From NCBI GenBank assembly GCA_964642835.1, contig CAZXQA010000001.1, positions 68,219 through 132,218 on the forward strand: 64,000 nucleotides of DNA, in the 5' to 3' direction. The notes under the pieces were generated by a model. It searched no databases, was not told the DNA's origin, and was given only the letters and a program-made list of their open reading frames with translations. Both the position numbers and the translations under genes were made by a program. Position 1 is the first letter of the stretch. Every line of letters begins with the position of its first letter. Origin of the DNA: an uncultured Candidatus Saccharibacteria bacterium. Its GTDB lineage: Bacteria > Patescibacteriota > Minisyncoccia > Phycocordibacterales > Zambryskibacteraceae. Below are positions 2,963-60,765 of the stretch, piece by piece.

Positions 2963-3727
2963 ATGGTTGATCGTATTAGAAACAACTTCTCCGGCGTTGT
3001 GGGTGCGTACGTTAAGTATCGTCGCGGTTATACGGCAGAGGTATACGAAGTGATGTATGCTTTTTGCCCTGACATAAACTCTCGCGTTCTGGATGTCGGT
3101 TGCGGTACGGGGATCGTGACCAACGAGCTGGCGGGTCATTATGCACATGTTACCGGCATTGATATTGCCGAGAAGATGCTTGAAGTAGCTCGTATCAATA
3201 AACTGGATAACGTTGATCTGCTCGCCGCTTCTGCAGAGAATCTTCCTTTCTTCGATGCTTCATTTGACTTAGTGACCGCTTCCGTCGCGTATCACTGGTT
3301 CAATTATGACAAGGCGGGGAAAGAAATTGTCCGGGTCCTTAAGCCGCAGGGTAAGTTATGCGTTATCTCGAAATATATTCCCGAAAGCTTGGCCGCCGGA
3401 GCTCCCGGATACTTGCCGCTTTTCGCCCTGGAGAATTTGGAGAAGTTTGTTCCCGAAGTGCCTCATACGAATAAAGAGAAGATCGGTGAGCCCATATTTA
3501 CCCGGGTCGGTTTTACGCAGGTAAGCTCCCGTAAAGTGGAGATTGATGACGTCTATACCAAAGAAGAAATTCTTGGCTTCATCCAGTCTCACTCGACGTT
3601 TAACCTGTTAACCTCGGAGCAGCAGGAGGAATATAAAAAGCTCAATGAGAAGTCCGTCGACCAACATCTCGTCGACGGGAAATATACCATCAAAGCCTGC
3701 GTCGAAATGTGGTTGTGTAATAAATAA
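2963..3727 (+). CDS. class I SAM-dependent methyltransferase
   Basis: VLDVGCGTGIVTNELA glycine-rich SAM motif I, then LKPQGKLCV (post I / motif II region). Confidence 0.75.
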   Translation: MVDRIRNNFSGVVGAYVKYRRGYTAEVYEVMYAFCPDINSRVLDVGCGTGIVTNELAGHYAHVTGIDIAEKMLEVARINKLDNVDLLAASAENLPFFDASFDLVTASVAYHWFNYDKAGKEIVRVLKPQGKLCVISKYIPESLAAGAPGYLPLFALENLEKFVPEVPHTNKEKIGEPIFTRVGFTQVSSRKVEIDDVYTKEEILGFIQSHSTFNLLTSEQQEEYKKLNEKSVDQHLVDGKYTIKACVEMWLCNK

Positions 3728-4328: not shown

Positions 4329-5525
4329 TTACTTCGCGATGTAGCTCAAGGCCATCTTCTGCTCCTTCGGATCGAAGAGGGTGATCTTGAAGTTGTAGAC
4401 CTTACCCATTTCAAGCGTGGAGCGGAGCTTTTCCTCCGAACCGAACTCAGAAATGTGAACCAAGCCCGCGACACCTTCCTCAATCGAGGCCAAGGCACCG
4501 TGCTTGTTGAACTTAATGATAACGCCGGAGACAGTGTCGTCCTTCTTGTACTTCTTCTCCGCTTCGCGCCATGGGTTCTCCTTCAAGGCCTTGATCGAGA
4601 GGGAAATCTTGCCCTCCTTGATCTCGATAACCTTCACGCGGACCTTCTCACCAATCTTGAACATGGTCTTTGGATTCTCGACGAGACCCCAATCGATTTC
4701 GGAGATGTGCACGAGGCCTTCGAGACCTTCTTCAAGCTTCACGAAGACACCGAAGTCGACGAGACCCGTCACTTCACCTGCTACTTCGTCGCCCAAAGCG
4801 TACTTCGAGAGCGTCGTTTCCTTGTCCTTAGTCTCAGGAGACTTCTCGGAGAAGATGAGCTTGCCCTCCTTCGGGTTCGCGCCGATCATCGTCACGAGGA
4901 GACGTTCACCCACGAGCTTCCTCAATTCATCGAGGATCTTGTCCTTGTCACCGTCCGCGATGCGCGGATAGTGCTCAGGCTTCAACTGAGAAGCGGGGAG
5001 GAAGCCAGTAATGCCCTGCCAGTTGATGATCAGACCACCCTTGTTGGCATCCATGACTGGGAGATCGAAGGCGCGCTTCTCCTTGATAGCATCCTCAGCT
5101 TCCGACCAGATAATGGCCTGACGAGCTTCCTTAAGAGAGATCTCGATGTAGCCTTCCTTGCCACCGAAGTCGACGACCTTGCCGTTCACTGTGTCGCCTA
5201 CGTTAATGCGCTTGATAATGTCGCGCGCGTTCTGGAATTCCTTGCCGTAAATGATACCGGTACCGAACGGAGGGAGGTCAATGTAAACCGCGCCCTTGTC
5301 GATCGAGATTACCGGACCCTCGACCATGTCGTCGATCGCTGGGGGAACAGGGAGCGTCTCGAGGTACGAGTTAACAGCCTCGGCGGCGGCGTCGAGGACC
5401 TTTTCTTTCTTTACCTTAGGAGCTTTCTCCTTCTTTACCGCTTCCTTCTTGGGAGCTTTAACAGTCTCAACGACCGCGTCCGAAGCTTCTGCTTCAGTTT
5501 TCTTCTTTCTGCCGAACAATGCCAT
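4329..5525 (-). CDS. rpsA: 30S ribosomal protein S1-like (multiple S1 RNA-binding domains)
   Basis: Repeated S1 motifs (GxV.G.V...FGxFV...G.EGLxHISE) three to four times. Start taken at MALFGRKKK; the upstream Met at 5561 is also possible. No clear SD for either. Confidence 0.75.
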   Translation of the reverse strand: MALFGRKKKTEAEASDAVVETVKAPKKEAVKKEKAPKVKKEKVLDAAAEAVNSYLETLPVPPAIDDMVEGPVISIDKGAVYIDLPPFGTGIIYGKEFQNARDIIKRINVGDTVNGKVVDFGGKEGYIEISLKEARQAIIWSEAEDAIKEKRAFDLPVMDANKGGLIINWQGITGFLPASQLKPEHYPRIADGDKDKILDELRKLVGERLLVTMIGANPKEGKLIFSEKSPETKDKETTLSKYALGDEVAGEVTGLVDFGVFVKLEEGLEGLVHISEIDWGLVENPKTMFKIGEKVRVKVIEIKEGKISLSIKALKENPWREAEKKYKKDDTVSGVIIKFNKHGALASIEEGVAGLVHISEFGSEEKLRSTLEMGKVYNFKITLFDPKEQKMALSYIAK

Positions 5526-42992: not shown

Positions 42993-42994
42993 AG

Positions 42995-43078
42995 TGCCCG
43001 GGGTGGGACTCGAACCCACATGACCTTGCGGTCGGGAAATTTTAAGTCTCCTGCGGCTACCAATTACGCCACCCGGGC
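42995..43078 (-). tRNA. tRNA-Leu(TAA)
   Basis: Manual fold: acceptor GCCCGGG/CCCGGGC, anticodon loop CTTAAAA, long variable arm, T-loop TTCGAGT. Confidence 0.8.
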
Positions 43079-43110
43079 GAATGCTGCCAAAAAAGCACGT
43101 CATGCTTTCT

Positions 43111-43186
43111 TGGAGGCGCAGAGGGGAATTGAACCCCTGCAATAACGGTTTTGCAGACCGTCGCGTTACCACTTCGCCACTGCGCC
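43111..43186 (-). tRNA. tRNA-Cys(GCA), encoded CCA
   Basis: Acceptor GGCGCAG/CTGCGCC, anticodon stem ACGGT/ACCGT, loop CTGCAAA, T-loop TTCAATT, 3' CCA. Confidence 0.8.
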
Positions 43187-43249
43187 GTTGCGTACTACTT
43201 TAGCATAATTGATTATTCCTTGCTTTTTTGGAATACTGTATCCCTGTAC

Positions 43250-43322
43250 GCGTCCATAGCTCAGCTGGTAGAGCAGGTCCCTCTTAAGGACAAGGTCGAA
43301 GGTTCGATCCCTTCTGGACGCA
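43250..43322 (+). tRNA. tRNA-Lys(CTT)
   Basis: Acceptor GCGTCCA/TGGACGC, D-loop AGCTGGTA, anticodon loop CTCTTAA, T-loop TTCGATC. Confidence 0.8.
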
Positions 43323-43332
43323 CAGGGTATGA

Positions 43333-43372
43333 GAAAAGGGCCGGCAAGACGATGAGTCTTGCCGGCCCTTTG
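43333..43372. terminator. bidirectional rho-independent terminator
   Basis: aaaaGGGCCGGCAAGACgatgaGTCTTGCCGGCCCttt, a 13-bp stem. Confidence 0.6.
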
Positions 43373-43379
43373 CGTGGCC

Positions 43380-43925
43380 TTACCGGAATCGCGAGGCGCA
43401 GAAGGCCCGGCAGTCCGTGTATACCTCCTCTTCACTGCGCGCACCATCAACTTGAAGGAAGCGATACGAGCGCCTCAAGATGGGCATGACCTCGGCAGCG
43501 TAGAGATTGTACTCTCTCAGACGCTCTTCGAGAGCCGCATCATCCATGCGTGGCCCCCGGCTAGTTTGCGCGACCTTGTTCCGGCGCGCCTCGATCTCCT
43601 TCTTCTTGAGATCGAGTTTGATGGCCAGGGCTTCAACGGTTGGGTCTAGTTTGTCGGCGACCCAGCTGAGTTGTGTCGCGGAGCGAGGGGTATTCAAAAC
43701 CAGCTCACTTGATTTCAGATGCTTCTTGAACAACTCGATCATCATCTGGTCCGGAGCCAGCTTACCTCCTTGGGTCAAGGTTCTGAACTTGGGCACGTGG
43801 GCTTCGAGAAGCCCGCTAGTGCTCACGTGCTCGAGGTTGAAGTCGGCGGCCAATCGTTTGCCGACCGTGTCTTTCCCCGAGAAGGGTGGCCCAAAGACTA
43901 CGACGATTTTCTTGATGAATCTCAC
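43380..43925 (-). CDS. nucleoside monophosphate kinase (adenylate kinase family, divergent)
   Basis: P-loop VVVFGPPFSGKDTVGKRLA (cf. adenylate kinase GPPGSGKGT). 181 aa, no lid zinc motif. Confidence 0.55.
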   Translation of the reverse strand: MRFIKKIVVVFGPPFSGKDTVGKRLAADFNLEHVSTSGLLEAHVPKFRTLTQGGKLAPDQMMIELFKKHLKSSELVLNTPRSATQLSWVADKLDPTVEALAIKLDLKKKEIEARRNKVAQTSRGPRMDDAALEERLREYNLYAAEVMPILRRSYRFLQVDGARSEEEVYTDCRAFCASRFR

Positions 43926-43994
43926 TATTTATCCTCCTAGAAAGATCTTGCCAGAGGACATCCTAGCAGAAAAAAGTTACTATGGCAGGTGTAT

Positions 43995-44078
43995 GGGCGG
44001 GTGGCGAAATTGGCAGACGCGCCAGCCTTAGGAGCTGGTCCTCGCAAGAGGGTGGAGGTTCAAGTCCTCTCCCGCCCA
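43995..44078 (+). tRNA. tRNA-Leu(TAG)
   Basis: Acceptor GGGCGGG/CCCGCCC, anticodon stem CCAGC/GCTGG, loop CTTAGGA, long variable arm, T-loop TTCAAGT. Confidence 0.8.
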
Positions 44079-44109
44079 CTAGGGTTCTGTTTGGTGATAC
44101 AATCTTTAC

Positions 44110-44727
44110 ATGTCTCACAGTAGATTAGATCAGCTCTCCGACGGTATTTTCGCCATCGTGATGACAGTGCTTGTGTTCGAAATCCGTCTTCCGGAAATTG
44201 GCATGGCGCCGAGCAATTTTGAACTCGGTGTCGCCTTGAAGAGTCTGACCCCCGCGCTGCTCTCTTACCTCCTTTCCTTCGCGCTCCTCTTTACCTACTG
44301 GCGCGCGCATCACTTCTTTGTTTCGGTATACGCGAAGAACGTGGATCTCATGCTCACGAACATTAATGCGCTCTTCTTCATGCTCGTGTCGCTCGTGCCC
44401 TTCTCGGCGAGTTTGCTCGGTCGGTATTATCACAACAGACTCTCCGTGGTCGTCTTTGGTATTCATATTATTCTTATCGGCCTCACCCTCTTCTGGATGC
44501 GCGGATATGTCTTCTACTCTGATCACATTAAGAATCCCGAAATTAGCCATCGAGAGATTCGCGGCTCTACCATCCGCACGATGGTGCCGGTCATTTTCGC
44601 GGTGATCGCCATTTGGATCTCTTCGAGAAACATCGACATCTCTCTCGCCGTCTTTACCTTGGCTGTCCTCTTCAACCTTTCCTCGGCGAGCGCGCGGATG
44701 TTTGATAAAATATTCAGGCTTTCCTAA
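44110..44727 (+). CDS. TMEM175/DUF1211 family membrane protein (putative K+ channel)
   Basis: N-terminal RLDQLSDGIFAIVMTVLVFEI matches the RxxxFSDGVFAIAITLLV hallmark. Six predicted TM helices. Confidence 0.65.
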   Translation: MSHSRLDQLSDGIFAIVMTVLVFEIRLPEIGMAPSNFELGVALKSLTPALLSYLLSFALLFTYWRAHHFFVSVYAKNVDLMLTNINALFFMLVSLVPFSASLLGRYYHNRLSVVVFGIHIILIGLTLFWMRGYVFYSDHIKNPEISHREIRGSTIRTMVPVIFAVIAIWISSRNIDISLAVFTLAVLFNLSSASARMFDKIFRLS

Positions 44728-44759
44728 GGGGAATAAAGTGCTGTACCATACAGGCTCGA

Positions 44760-44830
44760 GCGGCCATAGTTTAGTGGCAAAATGAGTGCTTCCCAAGCAT
44801 TAGATGGGAGTTCGATTCTCCCTGGCCGCA
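44760..44830 (+). tRNA. tRNA-Gly(CCC)
   Basis: Acceptor GCGGCCA/TGGCCGC, anticodon stem AGTGC/GCATT, loop TTCCCAA, T-loop TTCGATT. Confidence 0.75.
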
Positions 44831-44840
44831 CCGAAATGTT

Positions 44841-50056: not shown

Positions 50057-52729
50057 ATGCAGCCGTTTAATCACTTCACCACCAAGGCTAAGGAGGTTAT
50101 CCGCAAAGCTCACGAACTCGCGATCGAACGCGGGCAGAACCATGTGAACCCCGTCCACCTCCTCGCCGCCCTCATCCTCCAAGAGGAGTCGATGGTTCTT
50201 TCCGTGCTTGAGAAGATGGAAGTGGACACTATTCTTCTCACGGATTCCGTCCTCGACCTTATCGAAACTCCCGAGACGAGCCAGACCCTCTCGCCTTCGT
50301 ACCAGATTTACCTCACCCCCGAGCTCGCTCATACGATTGAGAGCTCGAGCAAGGTCGCGCAGTCGATGGGAGACGAATTTGTATCGACCGAGCATCTCTT
50401 CCTCGCCGTCATCGACACGCCGGGAGACGCTCAGGACCTTTTGAAGAAGTTCCGTATCGGCCGCGATCGCGTCGTTCAGGTTATTGAGGAGTTGAAGAAG
50501 GCGACAACAGAAGCTCCGAAGGAGCCAAAGAAGTATAAGTCGCTTCTCAAATACACGCGCTCTCTTACGACCCTGGCCAAAAATAATAAACTCGATCCCG
50601 TCATCGGCCGCGACGAGGAGATCTCGCGCATCATTCAGATTCTCTCGCGCCGCACGAAGAACAACCCAATACTCATCGGTGAAGCTGGTGTGGGGAAGAC
50701 CGCCATCGCCGAAGGGTTAGCTATCCGCATCGCTTCAGGCAACGTGCCGGAATCTTTGCGCGACAAGGATCTGGTCTCTCTTGACCTCGGGCTTCTTATC
50801 GCAGGGACGAAGTATCGCGGCGAGTTCGAAGAGCGTTTGAAGAGCATCATTAAGGAGATCGAGAAGTCGGAAGGCAAGATCATTCTCTTTATCGACGAGA
50901 TCCACACTATCGTCGGAGCTGGTGCGGCCGAAGGCTCCATGGATGCCTCGAACATGTTGAAGCCGCCGCTCGCTCGGGGCGAAGTGCGCGCCATTGGTGC
51001 CACGACGCTCCGCGAATATCAGAAGCATATTGAGAAGGATCCGGCGCTCACTCGCCGCTTCCAGCCTGTCTACGTGCAGGAGCCTTCGGTCGAAGACGCT
51101 ATGACGATCATGCGTGGTTTGAAGGAGCGTTACGAGCTCTACCACGGCGTGCATATTACCGACGAGGCTATCCAGGCCGCCGTCTCACTCTCGGCCCGCT
51201 ATATTACGGACCGCTTCCTCCCGGACAAAGCCGTGGATCTCATCGACGAAGCGGCTTCCTATTTGAAAATTTCTTTGGAAAACATGCCGCCTGTGTTGCA
51301 AGAGGCGCAGTCGAAGATCATGAAGCTTGAGATTGAGAAGGAGGCTCTCCGCAAGGAAGAGAAGTCGCCGAAGGTGAAGACGCGCTTGAAGGAGATCGAC
51401 CAAGCCGTCGCCGATTTGCGCGAACGCACTGCCGAAATCGAACTCAAATGGAAGAATGAGAAAGAAACAGTTTCCGAAATCAAGGCGTTGAAGAAGTCTC
51501 TCGAAACCTTGCGCCTCGAAGCGGAGGCGGCGGAAGCGCGCGCGGACCTTTCTCGCGCGGCCGAACTTCGCTACGGTCGCATCCCAGCAGTAGAGCGTGA
51601 CTTGGAGACCAAGGCCAAGAAGTTAAAGAAGCTTCAGAGTTCGCGCCGCATCCTTAAGGAAGAAATCACGGGCCAGGATATTGCTGGCATCGTCTCGAAG
51701 TGGACGGGTATTCCGGTCACGCGCATGCTCGAAGAAGAAGCCGAGAAGCTCTCTCGCATGGAGGAGCATCTTATGGAGCGCATTGTTGGCCAGAATGAGG
51801 CAGTGAAAAAGATTGCCGAGACGGTCAAGCGCAGCCGCGCGGGTATTGGCGACCCCAACCGTCCGATTGGTTCCTTCATTTTCCTCGGTCCTACCGGTGT
51901 TGGTAAGACTGAGCTCACGAAGGCTCTGGCTGAGTTCATGTTCGACGACGAGAAGGCGCTTATCCGCGTCGATATGTCGGAGCTCATGGAGAAGCATGCC
52001 ATTTCCAAACTCATTGGCGCGCCTCCGGGCTATGTCGGATTCGAAGAGGGTTCGAGCTTCGCCGAATCCGTGCGCCATCGTCCGTACTCGGTGGTGCTCT
52101 TTGACGAGATCGAGAAGGCGCACCCCGAGGTCTTTAACGTCCTCCTCCAGATTCTCGACAACGGTCGCCTGACTGACGCGAAGGGTCGCACCATCAATTT
52201 CAAAAACACGGTCATCATCATGACGAGTAACATTGGCGCGAACTATATCGACAAGATGCAGTCGATCGGCTTCAGTAAGGGCGAGCAGGATGCGTATGGC
52301 CAGGTGAAGGAGAAGGTCCTCGAGGCTCTCAAGGATCACTTCCGCCCTGAGTTCCTGAACCGTCTCGATGACGTTATCGTCTTCGACGTCCTTTCGCGCG
52401 AAGCAATCAAGGAGATTGTCGGTATCCAGGTCGAAGTGGTGAAGAAGCGCCTCGCTGAGAAGGAGATCGAACTCAATGTTTCTGAGGCAGTCCTCGAGCT
52501 CCTCGCCAAGGAAGGTTACAACCCGCAGTATGGTGCCCGCCCGCTCAAGCGTCTCATTCAGGAGAAGATCCTGAACCCAGTCGCCAATATGATGATTACG
52601 AACAAGGTACTCTCCGGGGGCTCAATCTCTGTCGACCTTAAGGACGGTCAGTTTGTACTCAATGCCGCGAAGGGGAAGAAGGCTCCACGTGTGACAAGCA
52701 TGTCAAAGAAGGAAGCGTTGGTGAAGTAA
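50057..52729 (+). CDS. clpB: ATP-dependent chaperone ClpB
   Basis: Clp N-domain, two AAA+ modules ([15 protein letters not shown]; [17 protein letters not shown]), middle coiled coil, 890 aa. Confidence 0.95.
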
Positions 52730-52775
52730 TTCTAAATAAAAAAAGATCGCCAGGCTGGGGAGCCGGCGATCGGGT

Positions 52776-52948
52776 TGGTACGGGGTGGGTGCCTAGCTTC
52801 AAGAGAAGCTGAAGATTTTTAATCGACTACGCTGGGAACGATGTTCCCGGCTTCCAGGTTTAACGCCGGAAGAAGGAATGATCCCCAGGTATTCCCTAGG
52901 TTCCCCAACTAGCTCAAGATTCTAAGCTGAATCTCCATCACCCCGTAC
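52776..52948. ncRNA. candidate structured RNA element (class unknown)
   Basis: An 11-bp perfect long-range pairing GGTACGGGGTG (52776-86) with CACCCCGTACC (52938-48) encloses several local hairpins (GCTTCaagaGAAGC, GGGAACgatGTTCCC, CTTCC...GGAAG, GGAATgatccccaggtATTCC) in a 300-nt non-coding gap. Confidence 0.25.
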
Positions 52949-53034
52949 CGCTACTCACTCTACTCCTCAGGTTATTTTATGCAAGGAAGGGTGGAAAAGG
53001 GCCGGGAAAGCTGATACATTATTGAAGTTCCAGC

Positions 53035-53118
53035 GCGTCGGTGGCGGAGTGGTCAATCGCACTAGACTGTAAATCTGGCGGCCTATGGCCTACGAAGGTT
53101 CGAATCCTTCCCGGCGCA
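53035..53118 (+). tRNA. tRNA-Tyr(GTA)
   Basis: Acceptor GCGTCGG/CCGGCGC (one G-U), D-arm GCGG-AGTGGTCAA-TCGC, anticodon loop CTGTAAA, long variable arm, T-loop TTCGAAT. The 3' end CCGGCGCACA recurs as the repeat core in the downstream island. Confidence 0.75.
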
Positions 53119-53120
53119 CA

Positions 53121-53160
53121 CATACATAAAAACAGGTCTCCGGGCCTGTTTTTATGTATG
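53121..53160 (+). terminator. perfect 16-bp inverted repeat hairpin immediately after tRNA-Tyr
   Basis: CATACATAAAAACAGGtctccgggCCTGTTTTTATGTATG; the 3' arm is U-rich. Confidence 0.45.
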
Positions 53161-53170
53161 CAGGTTGCAT

Positions 53171-53187
53171 GCCGGGAAGGATTCGAA
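53171..53187 (-). repeat. inverted 17-nt copy of the tRNA-Tyr T-arm and 3' acceptor segment
   Basis: GCCGGGAAGGATTCGAA is the reverse complement of TTCGAATCCTTCCCGGC (53099-53115). Confidence 0.6.
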
Positions 53188-53209
53188 AGGCGCAGTTCGC
53201 GCAGGCGAA

Positions 53210-53364
53210 CGAGCCGGGGTCGCGCGAAAATTCAGCAGAATTTTATGCGTGACCGAAAGTGTACTCACGCCCCTGCCCGGCGCACAATGTTTGAAAATCA
53301 CTATTTTTAGAAGCCTTTGCGAGTATATCGTAAGGGCTTTTAAACTTAATTTGAGCCACATTTC
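53210..53364. repeat. direct repeat copy 1 (155 bp, identical to 56234..56388)
   Basis: Exact 155-bp match, contains CCCCTGCCCGGCGCACAATG (tRNA-Tyr 3'-end core). Imperfect similarity continues for ~30 more bp. Confidence 0.9.
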
Positions 53365-53959
53365 GTTCTTTGATGGAAAGGTTCCAAAGTAGATTTTCCA
53401 GGATTTCTTTCTTTCCGTTCTCGTCTTTCTCTAAAAACTCTTTTCTGGCTCTACTGCCTCGTAAAAATACTTCTTTAGTCGATTCCAAAGTAGCAGACGG
53501 CTCACGCTGTTTTAGCTCCTGAATCTGCTTGTTAAGGGAAACTCTCTGGTTCTGGATTTCTAGAACCTTCTGGTCATAGAGTTCTTTGGTAATCTGGCTA
53601 TCAAGGAAAGTATCAAGAAGCCTCTGCTCTCTCGTCTTAAGACCTCCCAGGGCGGTTTCCAGTTCTTTTATGGCCTTATCAAAGTAGCCGTTATCAGCCT
53701 GAAGCCTTTCCTTGGCGGCTTGGTACATAAGCTCGATCTTTCTCTCGGTAAAGTCTAGGTTTAGGAATAAATCGGCTACTTTAGGATAAAGGTAAGTTTC
53801 TCGAAGATAAGTCTTGTGTTCTTCACACTTCTGTTTGCCGTTAGTGCAGTAGTAATAATGGTGGCCTTTTTTAAGTGAAGCTGTTAATGAGCAACCGCAA
53901 GTCTCACATTTAAGGAACCCTCTTAATGAAAGAGATATTAGGAAGCGCTTTAATACCGC
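53243..53959 (-). pseudogene. large serine recombinase, N-terminally truncated remnant (zinc-ribbon, coiled-coil and C-terminal parts only)
   Basis: The stop-to-stop frame gives ...RGFLKCETCGCSLTASLKKGHHYYYCTNGKQKCEE... (recombinase zinc beta-ribbon), then a coiled coil (KAIKELETALGGLKTREQRLLDTFLD...). It is bounded upstream by TAA at 53960-62, all three upstream frames are closed, and the catalytic resolvase domain is absent. Confidence 0.6.
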
Positions 53960-54054
53960 TTATTTCTGTGAATGTAGGAGCTGACTTTAAAGACGAAATC
54001 GAACTCATTAAAAATGGCTTAGTTAGGGCTTAATTTCATAGCCCGACTAATCTA

Positions 54055-54083
54055 TTGACTTTTAGCATATAGTATGCTATTAT
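54055..54083 (+). promoter_or_regulatory. near-consensus sigma70 promoter TTGACT-17-TATTAT
   Basis: TTGACTtttagcatatagtatgcTATTAT, about 50 nt upstream of the 54133 ATG, with GGAGG RBS at 54122. Confidence 0.45.
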
Positions 54084-54132
54084 TGTATTGTTAACCTAGT
54101 TTCTCAGCTCTTTCACTACATGGAGGTCAGCG

Positions 54133-54594
54133 ATGACTTACGCACAGACGGATCGCAAGGCACCGGCCATCATGGCCGCCCTCGCAGTCGCACAGGTGTT
54201 TCGCAAGCAGGGGGAAGTCAAGGCGCGTCCGGCAACGGACGGCGAACAGATCGAGACGATTCTCGGAAGCGGCGTCAAGGAGACGACGAACTCCGCGAAG
54301 CTCGGCGACTGGATCATGACGAACCCGTCCGGCGAGCAGCACATCATCTCGGAGCAGAAGTTCTTCAGCCGCTACGAAGCGACGGAGGCCGAAGGCGTCT
54401 ATCGCGCCAAGGGCTTCTGCCGGGCGATCAAGAACCCGTTCAGCGAGCCGATCGAGATCATGGCGTCCTGGGGATCGCCGCAGACGGGCGACGAGAACTG
54501 CATGATCGCCGACACCTGCGACGAGAACGGTGAGAACATGGGCGGCGAGCCCTACCTCATCGACGGCGCCGCGTTCGCCGAGACCTACAAGTAG
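54133..54594 (+). CDS. hypothetical protein encoded by a strongly GC-rich foreign segment
   Basis: 153-aa ORF. GC content and G/C-ending codon usage are far above the surroundings. Preceded by a promoter and RBS, followed by a terminator. No family recognised. Confidence 0.45.
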   Translation: MTYAQTDRKAPAIMAALAVAQVFRKQGEVKARPATDGEQIETILGSGVKETTNSAKLGDWIMTNPSGEQHIISEQKFFSRYEATEAEGVYRAKGFCRAIKNPFSEPIEIMASWGSPQTGDENCMIADTCDENGENMGGEPYLIDGAAFAETYK

Positions 54595-54621
54595 ACAGTA
54601 CAACCGCTTACTGAGAAGACT

Positions 54622-54662
54622 GCCCACCGGGCAACACTTCTCGGTGGGCGGTTTTCTTTTTT
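54622..54662 (+). terminator. rho-independent terminator
   Basis: GCCCACCGggcaacacttctCGGTGGGC followed by GGTTTTCTTTTTT. Confidence 0.5.
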
Positions 54663-55134
54663 AATTCTCCCTTCGTGTTTTCTTAGCCTCGTTTTCTAGT
54701 CGAGAAATCCATTTTGTGTTTTCGGTTGAAACGAGTGCTTCCACTACACCCACAAGGATTCTTTTAGCCTCTTCATCATTTTTCCCTTCATACTGGCCAG
54801 TTCGGCCAAGGTAAGTATATTTTTCATGTCTCAATGCTTCGCAAGTAGCTCTGTATGCAATCCAATTTTGAGACCATTGATTTACATGTTGAAGCCCTTC
54901 GATAACAACTACAACAACACCTAAAAAACCAGTTATCTTGGGGAAGCTAGTTGCAATAAAGGGAATTAAAGCGGCACAAGTTATTTCTGCCAGCTTAGAT
55001 CGTTTATACCACCATTGTGCACTACCAGATTTTTTGTCGTACCAAGCTATCTGTTGCTCAAGCCTTGGGTATTTCGAATCTGGCTCTTGGTCAACATTTC
55101 CAGGGGTGATGGTTTTGCTGAAAATGTTTAACAT
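54661..55134 (-). CDS. SLATT-clan / DUF4231-like two-TM membrane protein (putative effector)
   Basis: 157 aa. EQQIAWYDKKSGSAQWWYKRSKL, then two TM helices (LAEITCAALIPFIATSF; ITGFLGVVVVVIEGL), then WSQNWIAYRATCEALRHEKYTYLGRTGQYEG. Fits the DUF4231 pattern (W..Y.kk...y.r...TM-TM...W..yR...E.L..E...Y..G...Y). AT-rich relative to the host. Start overlaps the stop of the upstream TIR gene (ATGTTAA). Confidence 0.55.
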   Translation of the reverse strand: MLNIFSKTITPGNVDQEPDSKYPRLEQQIAWYDKKSGSAQWWYKRSKLAEITCAALIPFIATSFPKITGFLGVVVVVIEGLQHVNQWSQNWIAYRATCEALRHEKYTYLGRTGQYEGKNDEEAKRILVGVVEALVSTENTKWISRLENEAKKTRREN

Positions 55135-55712
55135 CGGACTCTTACTTTACTTGCAATAGGGTGAGTCCTTTTCTCAAAAGCTCGCTCGATATAAGCATTG
55201 GGATCGGCAACAAAGTCGTCCCATTTTACGAGAACGCCGTATCGTTCATCTTCTGTGTGATGGCATTTGTCCTCGTGAATAAAATAGTTTCGATGAAATT
55301 CCTTGATAGTAGTACTGTCATTAACATATACAACACTAATCGGAGTACCGCATCCTCCGCAGGAAGAGGGTGATCCAAAGACACGGTCATACATCTTAGG
55401 GAGCACAATTCCAAGAATGCCGCTTCGAGGATTATTCTCTCCGTCGTAAAGAGAAGCTTGAAGCTCTCGTTTGATAAATTTTTGCTCATCCCACCCAAGA
55501 TTCTCTGCGCTGTTCTCTCCGATAAGGTGAAGTGTTACGGTTGAATCCGAGAGGTATTCCTCACGGATCTTTCGCATGATGTAATCCTCGTCATCTGAAT
55601 CAATAGCTTCGTCCAGAGACTTATCAATCATGTCGAGGCCGGGCATAGCTTGAATTGCCAGTTTGTACGCTAGATCCTCAGTTTTAAAAGATATAAAGCC
55701 TTTTCTCGCCAT
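55128..55712 (-). CDS. TIR-like domain protein, ThsB-like (DUF1863/MTH538 type)
   Basis: MARKGFISFKTEDLAYKLAIQ (beta-A VFISF..D) ... STVTLHLIGENSAENLGWDEQKFIKRELQAS ... GILGIVLP closely parallels the ThsB pattern (KRVFFSFHYQD ... VLIGSQTFNRRWVRYEI ... IIGI). C-terminal Cys/His cluster SSCGGCGTP...HEDKCHH. Confidence 0.6.
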   Translation of the reverse strand: MARKGFISFKTEDLAYKLAIQAMPGLDMIDKSLDEAIDSDDEDYIMRKIREEYLSDSTVTLHLIGENSAENLGWDEQKFIKRELQASLYDGENNPRSGILGIVLPKMYDRVFGSPSSCGGCGTPISVVYVNDSTTIKEFHRNYFIHEDKCHHTEDERYGVLVKWDDFVADPNAYIERAFEKRTHPIASKVRVRC

Positions 55713-55863
55713 GATGTTGAGTGGTTATTATTAGGTGGCTCTAAAATACCACAAATAAGCCGCTAAGTCTGCAAGCCTAGACTGGTTCCAACCTCGTACC
55801 AGACGGCGCACACTAGACTTTTTGTGTTTTCAATGTAAGGTGGTGTTCGGAAAGGAGAGAGTG

Positions 55864-56091
55864 ATGACTGAAACAACGCTTCTTGAAGAGTACGAATCCT
55901 ATGAAGGAACCTACCGCTTGGCGAGTCTTCCGAGCGGAGATCTTAAGGGGATCCTCTTCACTCTCATCAGCGACATGCGTTTAAGACCGGCGTTCGGTGG
56001 TCTCTGGGAGCAATTAAATCGAGCCAGCAAAGAAGACTGGCTTCAGAGGTGGCTGAAGGCCGTTTCTCATGCCCGCGAAGAGCCTGCGTAA
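55864..56091 (+). CDS. hypothetical protein
   Basis: Start at MTETTLL with GGAAAGGAGAGAG upstream. 75 aa. No family recognised. Confidence 0.3.
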   Translation: MTETTLLEEYESYEGTYRLASLPSGDLKGILFTLISDMRLRPAFGGLWEQLNRASKEDWLQRWLKAVSHAREEPA

Positions 56092-56233
56092 TGCAAGCTC
56101 AACGCGGGCTCTTCTATTTTAATACGGTTCCAACTTCGTACCAGACGGTGCACAGTATAAAAAATAACTCGTCTTGCACGGGTTATTTTTTATACTGCCG
56201 GAAAGTAGGTGAGAAAGGCGGAGGCCGACGGGC

Positions 56234-56388
56234 CGAGCCGGGGTCGCGCGAAAATTCAGCAGAATTTTATGCGTGACCGAAAGTGTACTCACGCCCCTGC
56301 CCGGCGCACAATGTTTGAAAATCACTATTTTTAGAAGCCTTTGCGAGTATATCGTAAGGGCTTTTAAACTTAATTTGAGCCACATTTC
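56234..56388. repeat. direct repeat copy 2 (155 bp, identical to 53210..53364)
   Basis: Exact copy. In the recombinase frame it again encodes the last ~50 codons of the serine recombinase, so it is a second recombinase 3' remnant. Confidence 0.9.
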
Positions 56389-56443
56389 CATATTTGAGAG
56401 AAAGGTTCCAATAAAGGCTTAATATTACATATAATTCTACATA

Positions 56444-56473
56444 TTGACTTTTGGGTACATTGTATGGTATGAT
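56444..56473 (+). promoter_or_regulatory. near-consensus sigma70 promoter TTGACT-18-TATGAT
   Basis: TTGACTtttgggtacattgtatggTATGAT, upstream of the 56543 ORF. Confidence 0.4.
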
Positions 56474-56542
56474 AGATATAGGTAAGCATTTCGTTTACCT
56501 CCCTACTGCAGGGTATGCAGAGTTCTTTCAGAGAGGTGAAGT

Positions 56543-56773
56543 ATGACCGAAGAGAGAAAGGGGCAGATCGCTCTTCTTCTGCTCAAGGACAGGCTCCGCA
56601 ATGAAGGCGTCCGACTCAAGCCCGACATGAAGCGGGAGATCGGAAACCAGGCAACCAAGATCGGCGTGCCGATCGAGGAAGCCATGCAGTTCGTCGAAGG
56701 TCTGGTCCGCGAGATGGTGGAAGAAGTCTTCCCACCTCGCTCGTTCAGCTCCGTCAATCCCGATAACACCTAA
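56543..56773 (+). CDS. hypothetical small protein
   Basis: 76-aa ORF with GAGAGGTGAAG RBS, GC-rich. No family recognised. Confidence 0.35.
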   Translation: MTEERKGQIALLLLKDRLRNEGVRLKPDMKREIGNQATKIGVPIEEAMQFVEGLVREMVEEVFPPRSFSSVNPDNT

Positions 56774-56885
56774 TCGGGAAATAGAACACTAGGGTGAACC
56801 GCAAGGTTCCTAAAAGGGTAATTCCAACTCGTCGGAAGACTTAGTTGGAGGATAAGAACCTATCCCCGCGTTCTACCGCAACACC

Positions 56886-56925
56886 CCCCCTCGCTTAGCT
56901 TCGGCTGAGCGAGGGGTTTCTTTTT
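56886..56925 (+). terminator. rho-independent terminator
   Basis: CCTCGCTTAGCttcgGCTGAGCGAGG followed by GGTTTCTTTTT. Confidence 0.5.
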
Positions 56926-57018
56926 ATCTAATTTATATTTCATTTTTCTGCCGGTACAGATTTTGACACCGTGTAATCTTTAATGTATTTTTCTCCGTGG
57001 AAAGAGGGGTGATCTGAG

Positions 57019-57531
57019 ATGATCAAAGATGCCGATACTGAAGCTTTCTTCCTGAAGGCAATGCGTTCGGGCTATGCCGGCGGCGGTGTGGGGAAGACCA
57101 TGACTCTGCCGGACGTGAGGCCAAGCACCAAGGAGATCCGATATGTTCTTGGGGACTGGCTTCTCATCGACGAGTGGAACGTCAATCGGGATACGAACAA
57201 GTCCACTGGCGTGACACGCATCTGGCACGATGGCACACTCGTCTGGTGCATGAGTTATGGCGGGTATTACCCGGACTCTGTGACCAGATTCCTCAAGGTG
57301 GCACTTCGTCATCAGTACTCTTGTGAGGGCTCCTTCAAAGGTGGTCGTGGCCCCGTGCGATGCGTGGCTTCTGATCTTCTCTTTTCTGAAGAACCCGGTC
57401 TCGTCTACACGAACGAGTGCCACGGTAATTTTTGGCACTTCAGTGGCAAGGAAAGGATTTTTGCCCCACAGCTCCTCGCAGGCGATGCGGTGATCGGTTA
57501 CCACGATTACTGGGGCATGAGCCTTCTCTAG
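57019..57531 (+). CDS. hypothetical protein
   Basis: 170-aa soluble ORF (...GYAGGGVGKTMTLPD...). A terminator follows. No family assignable. Confidence 0.4.
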   Translation: MIKDADTEAFFLKAMRSGYAGGGVGKTMTLPDVRPSTKEIRYVLGDWLLIDEWNVNRDTNKSTGVTRIWHDGTLVWCMSYGGYYPDSVTRFLKVALRHQYSCEGSFKGGRGPVRCVASDLLFSEEPGLVYTNECHGNFWHFSGKERIFAPQLLAGDAVIGYHDYWGMSLL

Positions 57532-57539
57532 CTCGCATG

Positions 57540-57581
57540 AATGGGCGCATTTCCTTCGGGGAGTGCGCCCATTATTTTTTT
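57540..57581 (+). terminator. rho-independent terminator
   Basis: AATGGGCGCAtttccttcggggagTGCGCCCATT followed by ATTTTTTTT. Confidence 0.55.
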
Positions 57582-57640
57582 GATTTCTATATGTAAAACC
57601 GGTTCCCGCACAAGGCGGAAACCGGTTAGGTGGGTGATGT

Positions 57641-57886
57641 CTAGCGCTTCTGCATGATGGAGCTCATCTCCTCAAAGATGTCTCCCAGTACAGGCTTCAG
57701 TGCCTTGTACCATAGGGCGCACATGCTCAGGTACACGGTGCTGTAGATGAAGATCTCAGCGAGGCCCCACGTACCCACCCAGACCTTCCAGAAGCTCATT
57801 CCCACGAAGCTGAGGGTGATGACACCGAAGGTTTTCTTCTTTTTGATGAACCCGACGAGTCTCTTCATAGAACGCTCCCGGACCAC
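57641..57886 (-). CDS. hypothetical small membrane protein
   Basis: 81 aa, a KKKK tract then two hydrophobic helices. An AACCGGTT...AACCGGTT hairpin lies downstream at 57597-57630. Confidence 0.3.
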   Translation of the reverse strand: MVRERSMKRLVGFIKKKKTFGVITLSFVGMSFWKVWVGTWGLAEIFIYSTVYLSMCALWYKALKPVLGDIFEEMSSIMQKR

Positions 57887-57968
57887 TTTACCTAAAAACT
57901 TTCGACTTGCAAAAGTCGTGGTTTAAGCGTAATACGGATAGAGACTCGTCTAGGAGAGGGAGAGGCGC

Positions 57969-58253
57969 ATGCTTAAGGTGCTTATTGTAGCTCTCGGGAT
58001 CGTTTCCACATTCACATTCGAAGTCTGGCAGAGAACCGACGAATTGCGCAAGGAGATAGCGGCCTTGCAATTGAAAGACGCTCGACAGGATGATGTTCGC
58101 AGCGCCGAATGGGTGGCCGAGGTGCTCGCGCGTTACCCGGAGAAGGATCTTGCCCGTGATCTCTGCATGGAAGGGAATCCACCAAGGCCCATCACTAACC
58201 CCCTCGATAGGGAGTACATGCTCTACTCCTTCGTGCGACAAAAGATAGACTGA
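57969..58253 (+). CDS. hypothetical small membrane-anchored protein
   Basis: N-terminal TM helix (MLKVLIVALGIVSTFTF). A terminator follows. Confidence 0.3.
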   Translation: MLKVLIVALGIVSTFTFEVWQRTDELRKEIAALQLKDARQDDVRSAEWVAEVLARYPEKDLARDLCMEGNPPRPITNPLDREYMLYSFVRQKID

Positions 58254-58259
58254 TTCTAA

Positions 58260-58289
58260 GGGCGGCTCCTCCGGAGCCGCCCTTTTTTA
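58260..58289 (+). terminator. rho-independent terminator
   Basis: GGGCGGCTCCtccGGAGCCGCCC followed by TTTTTTAT. Confidence 0.55.
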
Positions 58290-58336
58290 TTGCATAAATA
58301 AAAAGCTGACACGCGGGGCGCATGTCAGCTTCGTGT

Positions 58337-58627
58337 CTATCTTTTCCTGGAACTGTGAAGTTCCCGATACGGAATCCCATCGAACCAGTCCAAGAATGGC
58401 GCGATGGGGTATTTCCACAGGAGTCCCAGAGAAAGGGTGACCAGGAACCCGCCGAGGATGTGCCAGAGGAGGTGTTCGTATCCGCTTCTTGTTGCCGCGA
58501 ATCCAACGATCTCGTGGAATTTCTCATCCTTGATGAGACTCCACCAGACGAGGATGGGTGTGAAAACGAGGAAGTGCAGGATTGCCCCGACTGCACTCAT
58601 ATTGAAGAACCTGAGTAAGGTCGCCAT
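58337..58627 (-). CDS. hypothetical membrane protein
   Basis: Start at MATLLRFF with AGGAGG 6 nt upstream. Three hydrophobic helices. Confidence 0.4.
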   Translation of the reverse strand: MATLLRFFNMSAVGAILHFLVFTPILVWWSLIKDEKFHEIVGFAATRSGYEHLLWHILGGFLVTLSLGLLWKYPIAPFLDWFDGIPYRELHSSRKR

Positions 58628-58724
58628 AGAGCCTCCTGAATGGTCTGGGGCCACTGTACCTCAAATATCCTTCTCCTTCAATCCCTACTTGCAAACCTCG
58701 GGAAATACGGTAATCTAATAGCCT

Positions 58725-58898
58725 ATGTCACAGAAGCACCTCATCAAGCTTGTCTCCGTCGGAGACGCCAGGGGCGTGGGCAAAGGCCACACGTATTATT
58801 CGACCAAGAACAAGAAGTCCGTTGAGCGCAAGATCGAGCTCAAGAAGTACAACCCCGTTGCAAGGAAGCACACGATCTATAAGGAAAAGAAAGCCTAA
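58725..58898 (+). CDS. rpmG: 50S ribosomal protein L33 (absent from the ORF track)
   Basis: MSQKHLIKLVSVGDARGVGKGHTYYSTKNKKSVERKIELKKYNPVARKHTIYKEKKA matches L33 (..IKL.S.....Y.T.KNK....KLEL.K.DP..R.H..YKE.K). Confidence 0.8.
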   Translation: MSQKHLIKLVSVGDARGVGKGHTYYSTKNKKSVERKIELKKYNPVARKHTIYKEKKA

Positions 58899-58903
58899 CA
58901 AAA

Positions 58904-58927
58904 ATCCCTCCAATTGGAGGGATTTTT
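58904..58927 (+). terminator. rho-independent terminator
   Basis: ATCCCTCCaattGGAGGGAT followed by TTTTGTTT. Confidence 0.55.
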
Positions 58928-58957
58928 GTTTAACGCTGTGTTAGGATAATCGCGTTG

Positions 58958-59028
58958 GGGCGATTAGTTTAATGGTAGAACAGCGGCCTCCAAATCCGCT
59001 GGTGGGGGTTCGATTCCCTCATCGCCCG
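58958..59028 (+). tRNA. tRNA-Trp(CCA)
   Basis: Acceptor GGGCGAT/ATCGCCC, D-arm GTTT-AATGGTA-GAAC, anticodon loop CTCCAAA (one C-U mismatch closing the stem), T-loop TTCGATT. Confidence 0.7.
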
Positions 59029-59031
59029 CCG

Positions 59032-59643
59032 ATGAATATTCTCTTCGATGTCGAGCAACTTCTAAGAACGTACGGTTATGTTGGCGTGTTTCTGATCGTC
59101 TTTCTCGAATCCGGCATCTTCTTCGCGCTCCCCGGGGACTCACTTCTCTTTACCGCGGGGCTCTTCGCCTCTCTTTCGGGACTCAATCTCTTTATTCTTA
59201 TTCCCGCCATCTTCCTCGCTACGTTCCTGGGCGGATTGGTTGGATATCGGATCGGGGTCTATATCGAGAGCCTGCATCGATACGCCTTCTTTCGCAAAAT
59301 TTTGAAGCCGGAGTACATCGCCAAGGCGCATGAGTTCTTCGTGGAGCACGGTAAGGGCGCCATTCTTATTTCTCGCTTCGTGCCGCTTATGCGTACCTTC
59401 GCTCCGATCGCCGCAGGGATCGCGCGGATGCCACACGCCAAGTTCGTGCGCTACAGCTTCTTCTCCTCGCTTCTCTGGTCGCTCTCAATTACCCTTTTGG
59501 GATATTTCTTAGGGCAGATCTTCCCGCAGATTACCAACTATCTCCACTTCGTCGTTATCGGAATCGTCGTTGTCTCTCTTATTCCATTTCTGACAGAATG
59601 GCTGCGTAGGCGTCTGAAGCGCTCGCGAACCACCGGATCTTAG
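59032..59643 (+). CDS. dedA: DedA family membrane protein (VTT/SNARE-associated domain)
   Basis: Start at MNILFDV immediately after tRNA-Trp. FFALPGDSLLFTAGLFAS...ISRFVPLMRTFAPIAAGIARM DedA motifs. The track ORF is 5'-extended into the tRNA. Confidence 0.8.
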   Translation: MNILFDVEQLLRTYGYVGVFLIVFLESGIFFALPGDSLLFTAGLFASLSGLNLFILIPAIFLATFLGGLVGYRIGVYIESLHRYAFFRKILKPEYIAKAHEFFVEHGKGAILISRFVPLMRTFAPIAAGIARMPHAKFVRYSFFSSLLWSLSITLLGYFLGQIFPQITNYLHFVVIGIVVVSLIPFLTEWLRRRLKRSRTTGS

Positions 59644-60440: not shown

Positions 60441-60524
60441 TGGTGCCGGAGAGAGGACTCGAACCTCCACCCCTTTCGGAACACGATTTTGAGTCGTGCG
60501 CGTCTACCATTCCGCCACTCCGGC
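60441..60524 (-). tRNA. tRNA-Leu(CAA), encoded CCA
   Basis: Acceptor GCCGGAG/CTCCGGC, anticodon stem CACGA/TCGTG, loop CTCAAAA, long variable arm, T-loop TTCGAGT, 3' CCA. Confidence 0.8.
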
Positions 60525-60525
60525 A

Positions 60526-60765
60526 TTAATTGAAATGACCCTTAAGAAACTCTTTACCTTCTCCAGTTTTAAACCATTTTTCTCTTGCACGTGCACTTAT
60601 TCTATCGGGGAATCTTTCTGTGTACAGTAAGGTAAACGGAGCGTATGGCTTTGTTGTCTTATTGCTTCCTGAATTATGCTGACCAAATCTTCTCTCTAAG
60701 TTGTCGGAAATTCCCACGTACAGGTAGCGCCTATTTAAGCTTTTAAGTACGTAGACAAAGTACAT
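60526..60765 (-). CDS. GIY-YIG nuclease family protein (small stand-alone)
   Basis: MYFVYVLKSLNRRYLYVGISDNLERRFGQHN contains the GIY...YIG motifs. 79 aa. The 20-bp palindrome lies 14-33 nt upstream of its start. Confidence 0.75.
   Translation of the reverse strand: MYFVYVLKSLNRRYLYVGISDNLERRFGQHNSGSNKTTKPYAPFTLLYTERFPDRISARAREKWFKTGEGKEFLKGHFN

Follow-up and report, generated by a model that had tools for sequence, protein, structure and literature searches.

What fills the 5.6 kb between the tRNA-Tyr gene and rpmG in the 64,000-nt stretch of contig CAZXQA010000001.1 analysed here (the window), and how did it come to lie there? A first-pass annotation, made from the letters alone, read the interval as an integrative island bounded by two perfect 155-bp direct repeats, which it took as a classic att duplication. 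We consider it likely that the interval is instead an accretion of at least two, and probably three, decayed elements belonging to a Patescibacteria-wide family of large serine recombinases (LSRs) that use tRNA 3' ends. The locus itself is ordinary debris, immobile and carrying a ThsB-TIR/SLATT gene pair; both of its LSR copies are without a catalytic domain, and the island is therefore now fixed, barring a recombinase acting in trans. As a view onto the family it is moderately interesting, exposing both a tRNA-targeting group of LSRs and a new structured motif that trails tRNA genes (motif M).

A variable insertion site between tRNA-Tyr and rpmG

The ClpB of this contig is closest to those of Paceibacteria or Zambryskibacteria-like Patescibacteria, with 83% amino acid identity to the best species representative. 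The order clpB - tRNA-Tyr - rpmG - tRNA-Trp - ... - miaA - tRNA-Leu is kept in about 50 of 80 loci, and comparison with these relatives directly established that their tRNA-Tyr sites are either empty or otherwise filled. Compact intervals of 183-400 bp separate tRNA-Tyr from rpmG in six of them (183 bp in L018, 282 bp in L007, 320 bp in L061, 356 bp in L075, 379 bp in L005 and 397 bp in L013), other loci have 0.5 to 8.4 kb, and the window has 5,605 bp. None of the open reading frames (ORFs) at 53.1-58.65 kb has a homologue within the syntenic intervals of the relatives; the sole exception among the island proteins, ORF76, has its homologue in L079 at about 3011-3247, upstream of the L079 clpB and thus outside the tRNA-Tyr-rpmG interval. 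The interval is therefore no conserved core sequence but a variable insertion hot spot, and the annotated integrative-element locus at tRNA-Tyr stands. The first sequence held in common with the relatives is an rpmG promoter-like block (CTTGCA...GGTAATYT), which means that foreign DNA reaches about 58.66 kb, close to the conserved right flank formed by rpmG (L33; 58725..58898, plus strand). The insertion accordingly runs on past 56388, where the second repeat ends, and the repeats do not bound it as had been proposed.

Recombinase remnants and the two repeats

The truncated serine recombinase of the first-pass annotation was confirmed as a large serine recombinase fragment at 53243..53950 on the minus strand, equivalent to residues 267-486 of its closest intact homologue (the 514-aa protein of metagenomic locus L087) plus a tail read from the att region. 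Its open frame (53950-53243; GC 0.418) matched only Zn_ribbon_recom in Pfam (3.8e-06); the fragment keeps the zinc ribbon and coiled coil but has neither the catalytic Resolvase nor the Recombinase domain. Over residues 267-486 the fragment shares 76% identity with the L087 protein and 50-76% with about 80 full-length LSRs. The second remnant (56267..56428, minus strand; open frame 56428-56297) retains residues 443-486 only. Besides these two truncated copies the window contains no further LSR homologue. No Phage_integrase match was obtained for any ORF at 53.1-58.7 kb.

The direct repeats proved as exact as described, 53210-53364 and 56234-56388 matching at 155 of 155 positions. Exact identity ends at once on both sides, and ungapped similarity extends to 53387 and 56411 (178 nt, 97%); these longer units are referred to as D1a (53210..53387) and D1b (56234..56411). 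The 155-bp repeat is made up of 66 nt of motif M (its right half), a 14-nt core resembling a tRNA end (a pseudo-attB core) and the terminal 100 nt of the LSR gene, and each copy holds the last 48 codons of the recombinase on the minus strand (about 50 in the annotation). A second, shorter repeat (55784-55815 and 56126-56157, 91%) was absent from the first-pass annotation.

The resident tRNA-Tyr(GTA) at 53035..53118/9 on the plus strand is intact (ARAGORN; Rfam tRNA, 58.9 bits). Its end reads ...CCTTCCCGGCGCAC, the sequence running up to 53120 ends ...CCCGGCGCAC, and the primary attB-type site is this 3' end (53106-53120, plus strand, CCTTCCCGGCGCACA). The 11-mer from the tRNA end that had been reported in each repeat is indeed there, but its resident copy, placed at 53108-53118, lies 2 nt further on at 53110-53120 and consists of the last 9 tRNA nucleotides and the next 2. 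This 11-mer, CCCGGCGCACA, occurs only three times in the window (53110-53120, 53276-53286 and 56300-56310). The 9-mer CGGCGCACA has four plus-strand copies within 53112-56310, one of them at 55804, against 0.48 expected in the whole window, and none of 100 shuffles reached five. The tRNA is followed directly by a 40-nt palindrome A (53121..53160), which is no canonical terminator because its T run sits within the stem.

An intact family of recombinases at tRNA 3' ends

A profile built from the fragment and its database homologues retrieved 80 metagenomic loci, and exact look-ups added three more, for a family set of 83; exact-protein look-ups with rpmG, DedA and the 161-aa LSR ORF gave no match. 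In 66 of the 83 loci the gene for an LSR of about 500 aa converges on a tRNA gene and terminates in or against the 3' end of the latter, antisense to it. This association, observed directly across the family, covers 12 tRNA types: Gln (27 loci), Ser (12), Trp (6), Leu (4), Tyr, Ala and Val (3 each), Gly, Lys and Asn (2 each), and Ile and Pro (1 each). At six further loci the LSR 3' end lies at a contig end. The conserved part of the protein ends at ...KSPYDILAKAPKNADF, and the C-terminal tails diverge exactly at the antisense start of the tRNA (for example ...RDSN... and ...LDSNQD...) because they are translated from the antisense tRNA. A Taylorbacteria genome (L036) shows the same arrangement at tRNA-Tyr. 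The L087 LSR, the closest intact homologue, combines Resolvase (2e-20), Recombinase and Zn ribbon domains, is accompanied by a rolling-circle replication (RCR) Rep and abuts tRNA-Tyr, its junction of CCTGCCCGGCGCAC with AATGTTTGAAAA being identical to that in D1. The predicted attP for this LSR would be GGTTCCAACTTCGTACCAGACGGCGCAC joined to AATGTTTGAAAATC.... The Rep of L087 is located at 4714-5451, and the locus also encodes an MrcB_N-NucS_C nuclease.

The attachment sites of the family could be read directly from the integrated elements. At about 35 loci a P arm of the form (A/G)GTTCCAAC-N-T-N-GT-N-CC... (N17/18 after GTTCCAAC) is present 4-10 kb from the LSR end, and in every case its last 4-8 nt copy the acceptor end belonging to the target tRNA of the element in question: GGCCAGC in Gln-specific elements, TCTCCGC in Ser-specific, GGCGCAC in Tyr-specific, GGTCCAC in Ala-specific and CCGCCCAC in Val-specific ones. 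The P' arm (AnnGTTGAAAwA...) consists of the last codons of the LSR gene, attP straddling the gene end. In the integrated state attL thus reads tRNA - core - P', and attR reads P - core - old tRNA flank. At the roughly 35 loci attL and attR overlap by only 4-18 nt, and the shared block always ends with the discriminator base plus C, sometimes followed by A. From this constant ending we infer that the crossover must lie there, within a bracket that spans the final acceptor nucleotides, the discriminator and the C after it. At two loci (L093 and L100) P is joined directly to P', giving an attP-like junction. A T-loop-like GGTTCCAAC stands 18 nt from the block end in P arms, and GGTTCGAAT stands 13 nt from it in tRNAs. 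An outward displacement of one recognition motif by 5 bp in attP, relative to its place in attB, is reportedly the pattern seen in structural work on serine integrases. A symmetric attP centred between two GTTxxAAC-like motifs was considered and rejected, its centre falling outside the attP/attB identity block in Gln-specific elements.

For a census of cargo, 25 elements were delimited by P' and the nearest P arm. Intact elements span 3-8 kb and comprise a rolling-circle Rep, the LSR of about 500 aa and variable defence cargo. In most of the 25 the Rep lies directly upstream of the LSR on the same strand (REP_ORF2-G2P in 15, RepSA in 8, Phage_CRI in 6 and Helitron_like_N in 4), an arrangement that identifies the elements as integrative RCR replicons. 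The cargo includes methylases, restriction enzymes, an AbiEii-type ATPase and LexA-like repressors. An identity as inoviruses was rejected; the 25 elements have a G2P-type Rep, yet families for morphogenesis or virions are absent from their top Pfam hits. No terminal overlap indicating a circular contig was found at any locus. Two or three P arms stand in a row at L117, L110, L090, L107, L140 and L161, so that tandem accretion is usual in the family.

A separate observation concerns L086 (850-1000) and L146, which carry the same sequence. In place of a tRNA gene, a tandem pair of pseudo-tRNA modules adjoins the LSR 3' end there, each made up of a hairpin, GTTCGAATCC and an acceptor-like 3' strand. 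Such modules may represent a further type of spare tRNA end that serves for attachment.

Reading the window against the family

Both repeats contain a junction of the attL type. Junction 1 (53272..53286, plus strand) is the 14-nt tRNA-Tyr 3' end CCTGCCCGGCGCAC followed by A, where the P' arm AATGTTTGAAAA begins, and it continues as CCTGCCCGGCGCAC joined to AATGTTTG...; junction 2 has the same 14-nt core and P' at 56296-56310 (plus strand), within D1b. These two junctions bear out the earlier suggestion of two related tandem elements with their recombinase-proximal ends beside an att core. The right-hand ends are supplied by two P arms of the attR type (GGTTCCAACYTCGTACCAGACGGYGCAC), D2a at 55784..55811 (GGTTCCAACCTCGTACCAGACGGCGCAC) and D2b at 56126..56153 (GGTTCCAACTTCGTACCAGACGGTGCAC), both on the plus strand and the latter followed by a tRNA-flank-like palindrome B (56153-56197). 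The P-arm pattern has two exact matches in the window against 0.02 expected. These arms, inside the interval and overlooked in the first-pass annotation, are the real right-hand ends of elements, a role that had been given to the repeats. Between them lies ORF75 (55864..56091, plus strand; 75 aa without family match), which is a remnant of a further element. The resident tRNA-Tyr is intact, and the tRNA-like pieces of the interval (the 14-nt core twice and the P arms twice) appear to be element or motif M sequence and not displaced fragments of the resident gene. In tRNA orientation the anatomy, established directly, thus runs tRNA-Tyr, palindrome A, the first copy of motif M (M_A), junction 1, LSR fragment, promoter-like site, PGDYG ORF, SLATT/TIR pair, D2a, ORF75, D2b, palindrome B, the second copy of the motif (M_B), junction 2, LSR remnant, promoter-like site, ORF76, DUF5680 gene, three small ORFs and rpmG.

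With this anatomy, a single island at the tRNA-Tyr 3' end whose 155-bp repeats are the attL/attR duplication becomes very improbable. Such a model can draw on the tRNA-end 11-mer, which is held by both repeats and has only three occurrences in the window, and on the fact that the locus is a genuine insertion hot spot. However, the left repeat starts 90 nt past the tRNA, and each repeat is a composite of half of motif M (66 nt), a pseudo-tRNA end and 100 nt of recombinase coding sequence. Serine recombinases leave no long duplication, attL and attR of this family sharing about 4-18 nt only, and there is no tyrosine integrase. In addition, attR-type P arms lie inside the interval, 2.3 kb more of foreign DNA follow the second repeat, and the repeat core is of the CCTGC type, as in L005-L007 and L087, while the resident tRNA-Tyr end is CCTTC.

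The perfect identity of the repeats could also stem from one element that underwent a recent segmental (tandem) duplication and then deletions, in which case there would be a single lineage and not two integrations. The 100% match over 155 nt amid diverged surroundings favours this, as does the homologous promoter-like block that trails both repeats with the same 19-nt gap from GGCTTAAT to ATTGACTTTT. A global alignment of 53340-54140 with 56364-56550 showed nothing in common past D1 except that short block. On the left the repeats adjoin sequences of different kinds with a similarity of only about 45-50%, D1a being preceded by the tRNA, palindrome A and the native left half of motif M, and D1b by a P arm, palindrome B and a different left half. 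Since the two P arms and the cargo also differ, and family members commonly have several P arms at one locus, we regard duplication of one element as unlikely.

We favour successive integrations, and the order of events proposed here is our own reconstruction. Recombination by the LSR would take place at or next to the discriminator base, leaving the LSR ORF running antisense into the tRNA and the other end as P arm - core - former flank. Elements would have entered, in a relative with a CCTGC-type tRNA-Tyr, both the tRNA and the spare tRNA end of motif M. The array would then have moved as a composite into the present lineage with palindrome B and M_B trapped inside it. A foreign tRNA flank (palindrome B and M_B) stands behind D2b, which suggests that such a relative supplied the whole tandem array in a single move, together with the stretches of chromosome lying between its members. 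Deletions would subsequently have removed the 5' parts of the recombinase genes and the last P arm, and conversion would have equalised the two junction regions. The 155-bp repeat is a duplicated unit of motif M right half, attL junction and LSR 3' end, and its two copies were most likely made identical through gene conversion or homologous recombination. The left border of D1a falls within the conserved core of M, which has the look of these processes and not of site-specific recombination.

Several observations weigh against the accretion of decayed family elements. The window contains neither an intact LSR nor a Rep, and no P arm was found as a right end before rpmG, which leaves the boundary of the last element undefined. 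Insertion at the tRNA-end copy of motif M is seen only in this window and in none of the 83 other loci, and could instead be a product of homologous recombination. Neither an excised circle nor an attP of the Tyr-specific element was recovered, IMG/VR gave no match for the LSR profile or the attP junction pattern, and a limited full-text search of the literature found no description of this LSR family or of motif M. Finally, the contig was assembled from a metagenome, and unitigs from short reads end at D1.

Assembly support

This last point bears on a further alternative, namely that the assembler used the 155-bp sequence to join two alternative strain variants of the site, or a 3,024-bp episome, into a tandem. 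Logan unitigs covering 53335-56263 (four runs) and 56359-58926 reproduce the window exactly and are bounded by D1 with k-1 overlaps. The unitigs thus confirm the content and the repeat, and leave the tandem order to the original assembler. The unitig of 53335-56263, 2,929 nt long and flanked on both sides by the repeat, is equally compatible with a circle, an alternative allele or a tandem array. Of the Logan contigs with an identical ClpB, those from two runs stop exactly at the tRNA end (L001 and L002, at 53120 and 53116), and the 30-mer before their break is unique in the window; a third ends at 53239, 30 nt into D1a. The two breaks at the tRNA end suggest a co-existing strain variant that diverges at the tRNA end, the crossover point. 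However, a 3-kb circle lacking both a Rep and an intact recombinase could not have been maintained, each repeat has a left flank of its own that occurs once, L003 runs from the tRNA into D1a, and paired-end scaffolding can bridge a 155-nt repeat in the original 486-kb contig. On these grounds we give a stitching artefact hardly any credence.

Motif M, a structured companion of tRNA genes

Motif M, of which the leftmost 66 nt of each repeat form part, is an element of about 98 nt that is found beside tRNA genes in many of the Paceibacteria genomes retrieved. The window has two copies on the plus strand, M_A at 53170..53271 (77.6 bits with covariance model R1; also found with nhmmer) and M_B at 56198..56295 (88.4 bits with R1), the latter in the position of a tRNA flank just after a P arm. 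Further copies include L005:6383-6480(-), L014:557-654, L055:5602-5699(-), L067:13372-13469 and L074:8273-8371. A four-helix model fits 17 copies, with 91.5% of cells paired against 36-45% when the partners are slid, and 20 of 29 pairs show compensatory change. One pair is an invariant G.U, which points to the tRNA-sense strand and hence to an RNA. The covariance model recovered 71 copies in 2.05 Mb, 54 of which lie 1-127 nt downstream of a tRNA on the same strand (Tyr 18, Leu 18, Lys 11, Trp 4, Cys 2 and Ala 1). In the window no copy was detected after the tRNAs of a five-gene cluster at 42994-44832 (Leu-TAA, Cys, Lys-CTT, Leu-TAG and Gly-CCC), while relatives have M behind the same tRNA types.

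The closing helix of M pairs an inverted copy of the T-loop region of the neighbouring tRNA with a direct copy, 19-24 nt long, of its 3' end, and through these copies M co-varies with its neighbour. The left end of M_A (53171-53187, GCCGGGAAGGATTCGAA) is an exact inverted copy, over 17 nt, of the resident CCTTC-type tRNA-Tyr 3' end. Its right half, from 53210 and including the 3' strand of the closing helix, is identical to M_B and of the CCTGC type; M_A is therefore chimeric. Both LSR junctions of the window sit at the spare tRNA end of M and not at the tRNA itself.

Rfam contained no match for M: only the tRNA was returned at E<=1 over 52700-59100, and a search with the L005 copy at E<=10 gave only chance miRNA-type matches. 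A hammerhead, a group II domain 5, a minus-strand tRNA-like gene and a rho-independent terminator were each dropped by eye, as cores or geometry did not fit. Mobilisation of M by the LSR as a mini-element was also rejected, the left junctions being without the P' consensus AnnGTTGAAA.

These features allow a broader, tentative proposal, in which the LSRs of the family would read the universally conserved T-loop (GGTTCRAAT) as one of several motifs for DNA recognition and M would be a new tRNA-trailing class of RNA that serves as a decoy landing pad. Taken jointly, the two parts are possible but rather doubtful. If the first were true, an element could be retargeted to any tRNA by changing only the 4-8 acceptor-end nucleotides of its attP, its P arm bearing the T-loop motif 5 bp further out, and the family would be a naturally semi-programmable set of serine integrases. 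The spare tRNA end of M may divert insertions from the tRNA gene.

Relation to known systems

The intact homologues share the Resolvase, Recombinase, zinc-ribbon and coiled-coil architecture of the LSRs of phiC31, Bxb1, A118/LI integrase and SCCmec Ccr. As in LSR prophages and islands, attP lies beside the recombinase gene, the attP/attB identity block is short and no long target duplication is made. Known LSRs mostly have protein-coding targets, whereas the present family uses tRNA 3' ends of at least 12 isoacceptor types. Unlike in known LSRs, attP of this family overlaps the stop region of the recombinase gene, so that the C-terminal tail changes upon integration, and unlike known LSR carriers the family rides on RCR replicons of 3-8 kb in bacteria of the candidate phyla radiation (CPR).

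tRNA genes are classic landing sites of genomic islands, and they are normally targeted by tyrosine integrases, which makes a serine recombinase in this role unusual. Islander-type islands and actinomycete elements such as pSAM2 (RepSA and Int at a tRNA gene) are likewise small integrative replicons at tRNA 3' ends, with a Rep of the RepSA or G2P type, a variable hot spot and tandem arrays. In contrast to these, the present elements have a serine and not a tyrosine recombinase, and they duplicate no tRNA fragment of tens of nucleotides, the tRNA remaining unsplit and the crossover probably lying at or after the discriminator base. Tandem decayed elements formed by site-specific accretion are also known as cis-mobilizable elements (CIMEs) beside the integrative and conjugative elements (ICEs) of the ICESt1/ICESt3 family in Streptococcus thermophilus, where internal att sites are kept, the recombinase is lost and composite movement is possible. 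The interval resembles CIMEs in its tandem decayed array with internal att sites and differs from them in being far smaller, in having no conjugation module, in its LSR and in the captured tRNA flank (palindrome B and M_B). The main text of the LSR survey of Durrant et al. makes no mention of tRNA (PMC10083194). A minority of tycheposons carry LSRs, and the passages retrieved on these are silent on targets (10.1101/2020.12.28.424599).

The family is significant as a coherent set of LSRs that targets a dozen tRNA types, and it does so in CPR bacteria, a group about whose mobile elements little is known. Its att sites are readable from genomes (more than 35 attL/attR pairs) and the specificity block looks short, which is of practical interest, LSRs being favoured tools of genome engineering. 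The locus in turn shows minimal defence-carrying replicons accumulating and decaying at one site of a streamlined genome, and motif M adds an uncatalogued structured motif beside many tRNA genes.

Cargo and neighbouring genes

The cargo between the two repeats is mosaic in composition, as the first-pass annotation had recognised, with GC contents of 0.632 for the PGDYG ORF, 0.403 for SLATT and 0.434 for TIR against 0.532 for the window. The TIR/SLATT pair also fits, as cargo, the defence pattern of the family. A ThsB-like TIR protein (55128..55712, minus strand; Pfam ThsB_TIR; PADLOC ThsB 1.8e-14) is encoded with a 7-nt overlap next to a SLATT/DUF4231 protein with two transmembrane segments (54661..55134, minus strand; Pfam). 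The overlapping operon of a ThsB-like TIR with a SLATT/DUF4231 membrane protein recalls Thoeris and TIR-SLATT systems. A gene for ThsA (SIR2/Macro-SLOG) is absent and the SLATT partner has no PADLOC match; without ThsA the pair is not a canonical Thoeris.

The PGDYG-domain ORF (54133..54594, plus strand; Pfam PF14083; 63% GC) is preceded by a promoter-like TTGACT-N17-TATTAT at 54055..54083 (plus strand), a putative assignment by sequence comparison whose spacing is homologous to that of the site at 56444-56473. Its import across phyla, as 63% GC in a 53% GC genome might imply, was rejected; homologues with 65-91% identity are very common in Patescibacteria metagenomes. From this distribution in sequence data, the ORF looks like a widely travelling small gene.

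The rest of the insertion (56444..58654) begins with the second promoter-like site (56444-56473) and contains ORF76 (56543-56773), a DUF5680 gene (57019-57531) and small ORFs at 57641-57886(-), 57969-58253(+) and 58337-58654(-); the syntenic loci of relatives have no counterparts of these ORFs. After rpmG follows tRNA-Trp (58958-59030). Further along, in the region 60441-60765, the miaA ORF in its long form overlaps a minus-strand tRNA-Leu(CAA), the likely true start of miaA being 60436. Directly adjoining this tRNA is a 79-aa ORF (60526-60765, minus strand) that resembles GIY-YIG proteins by eye only.

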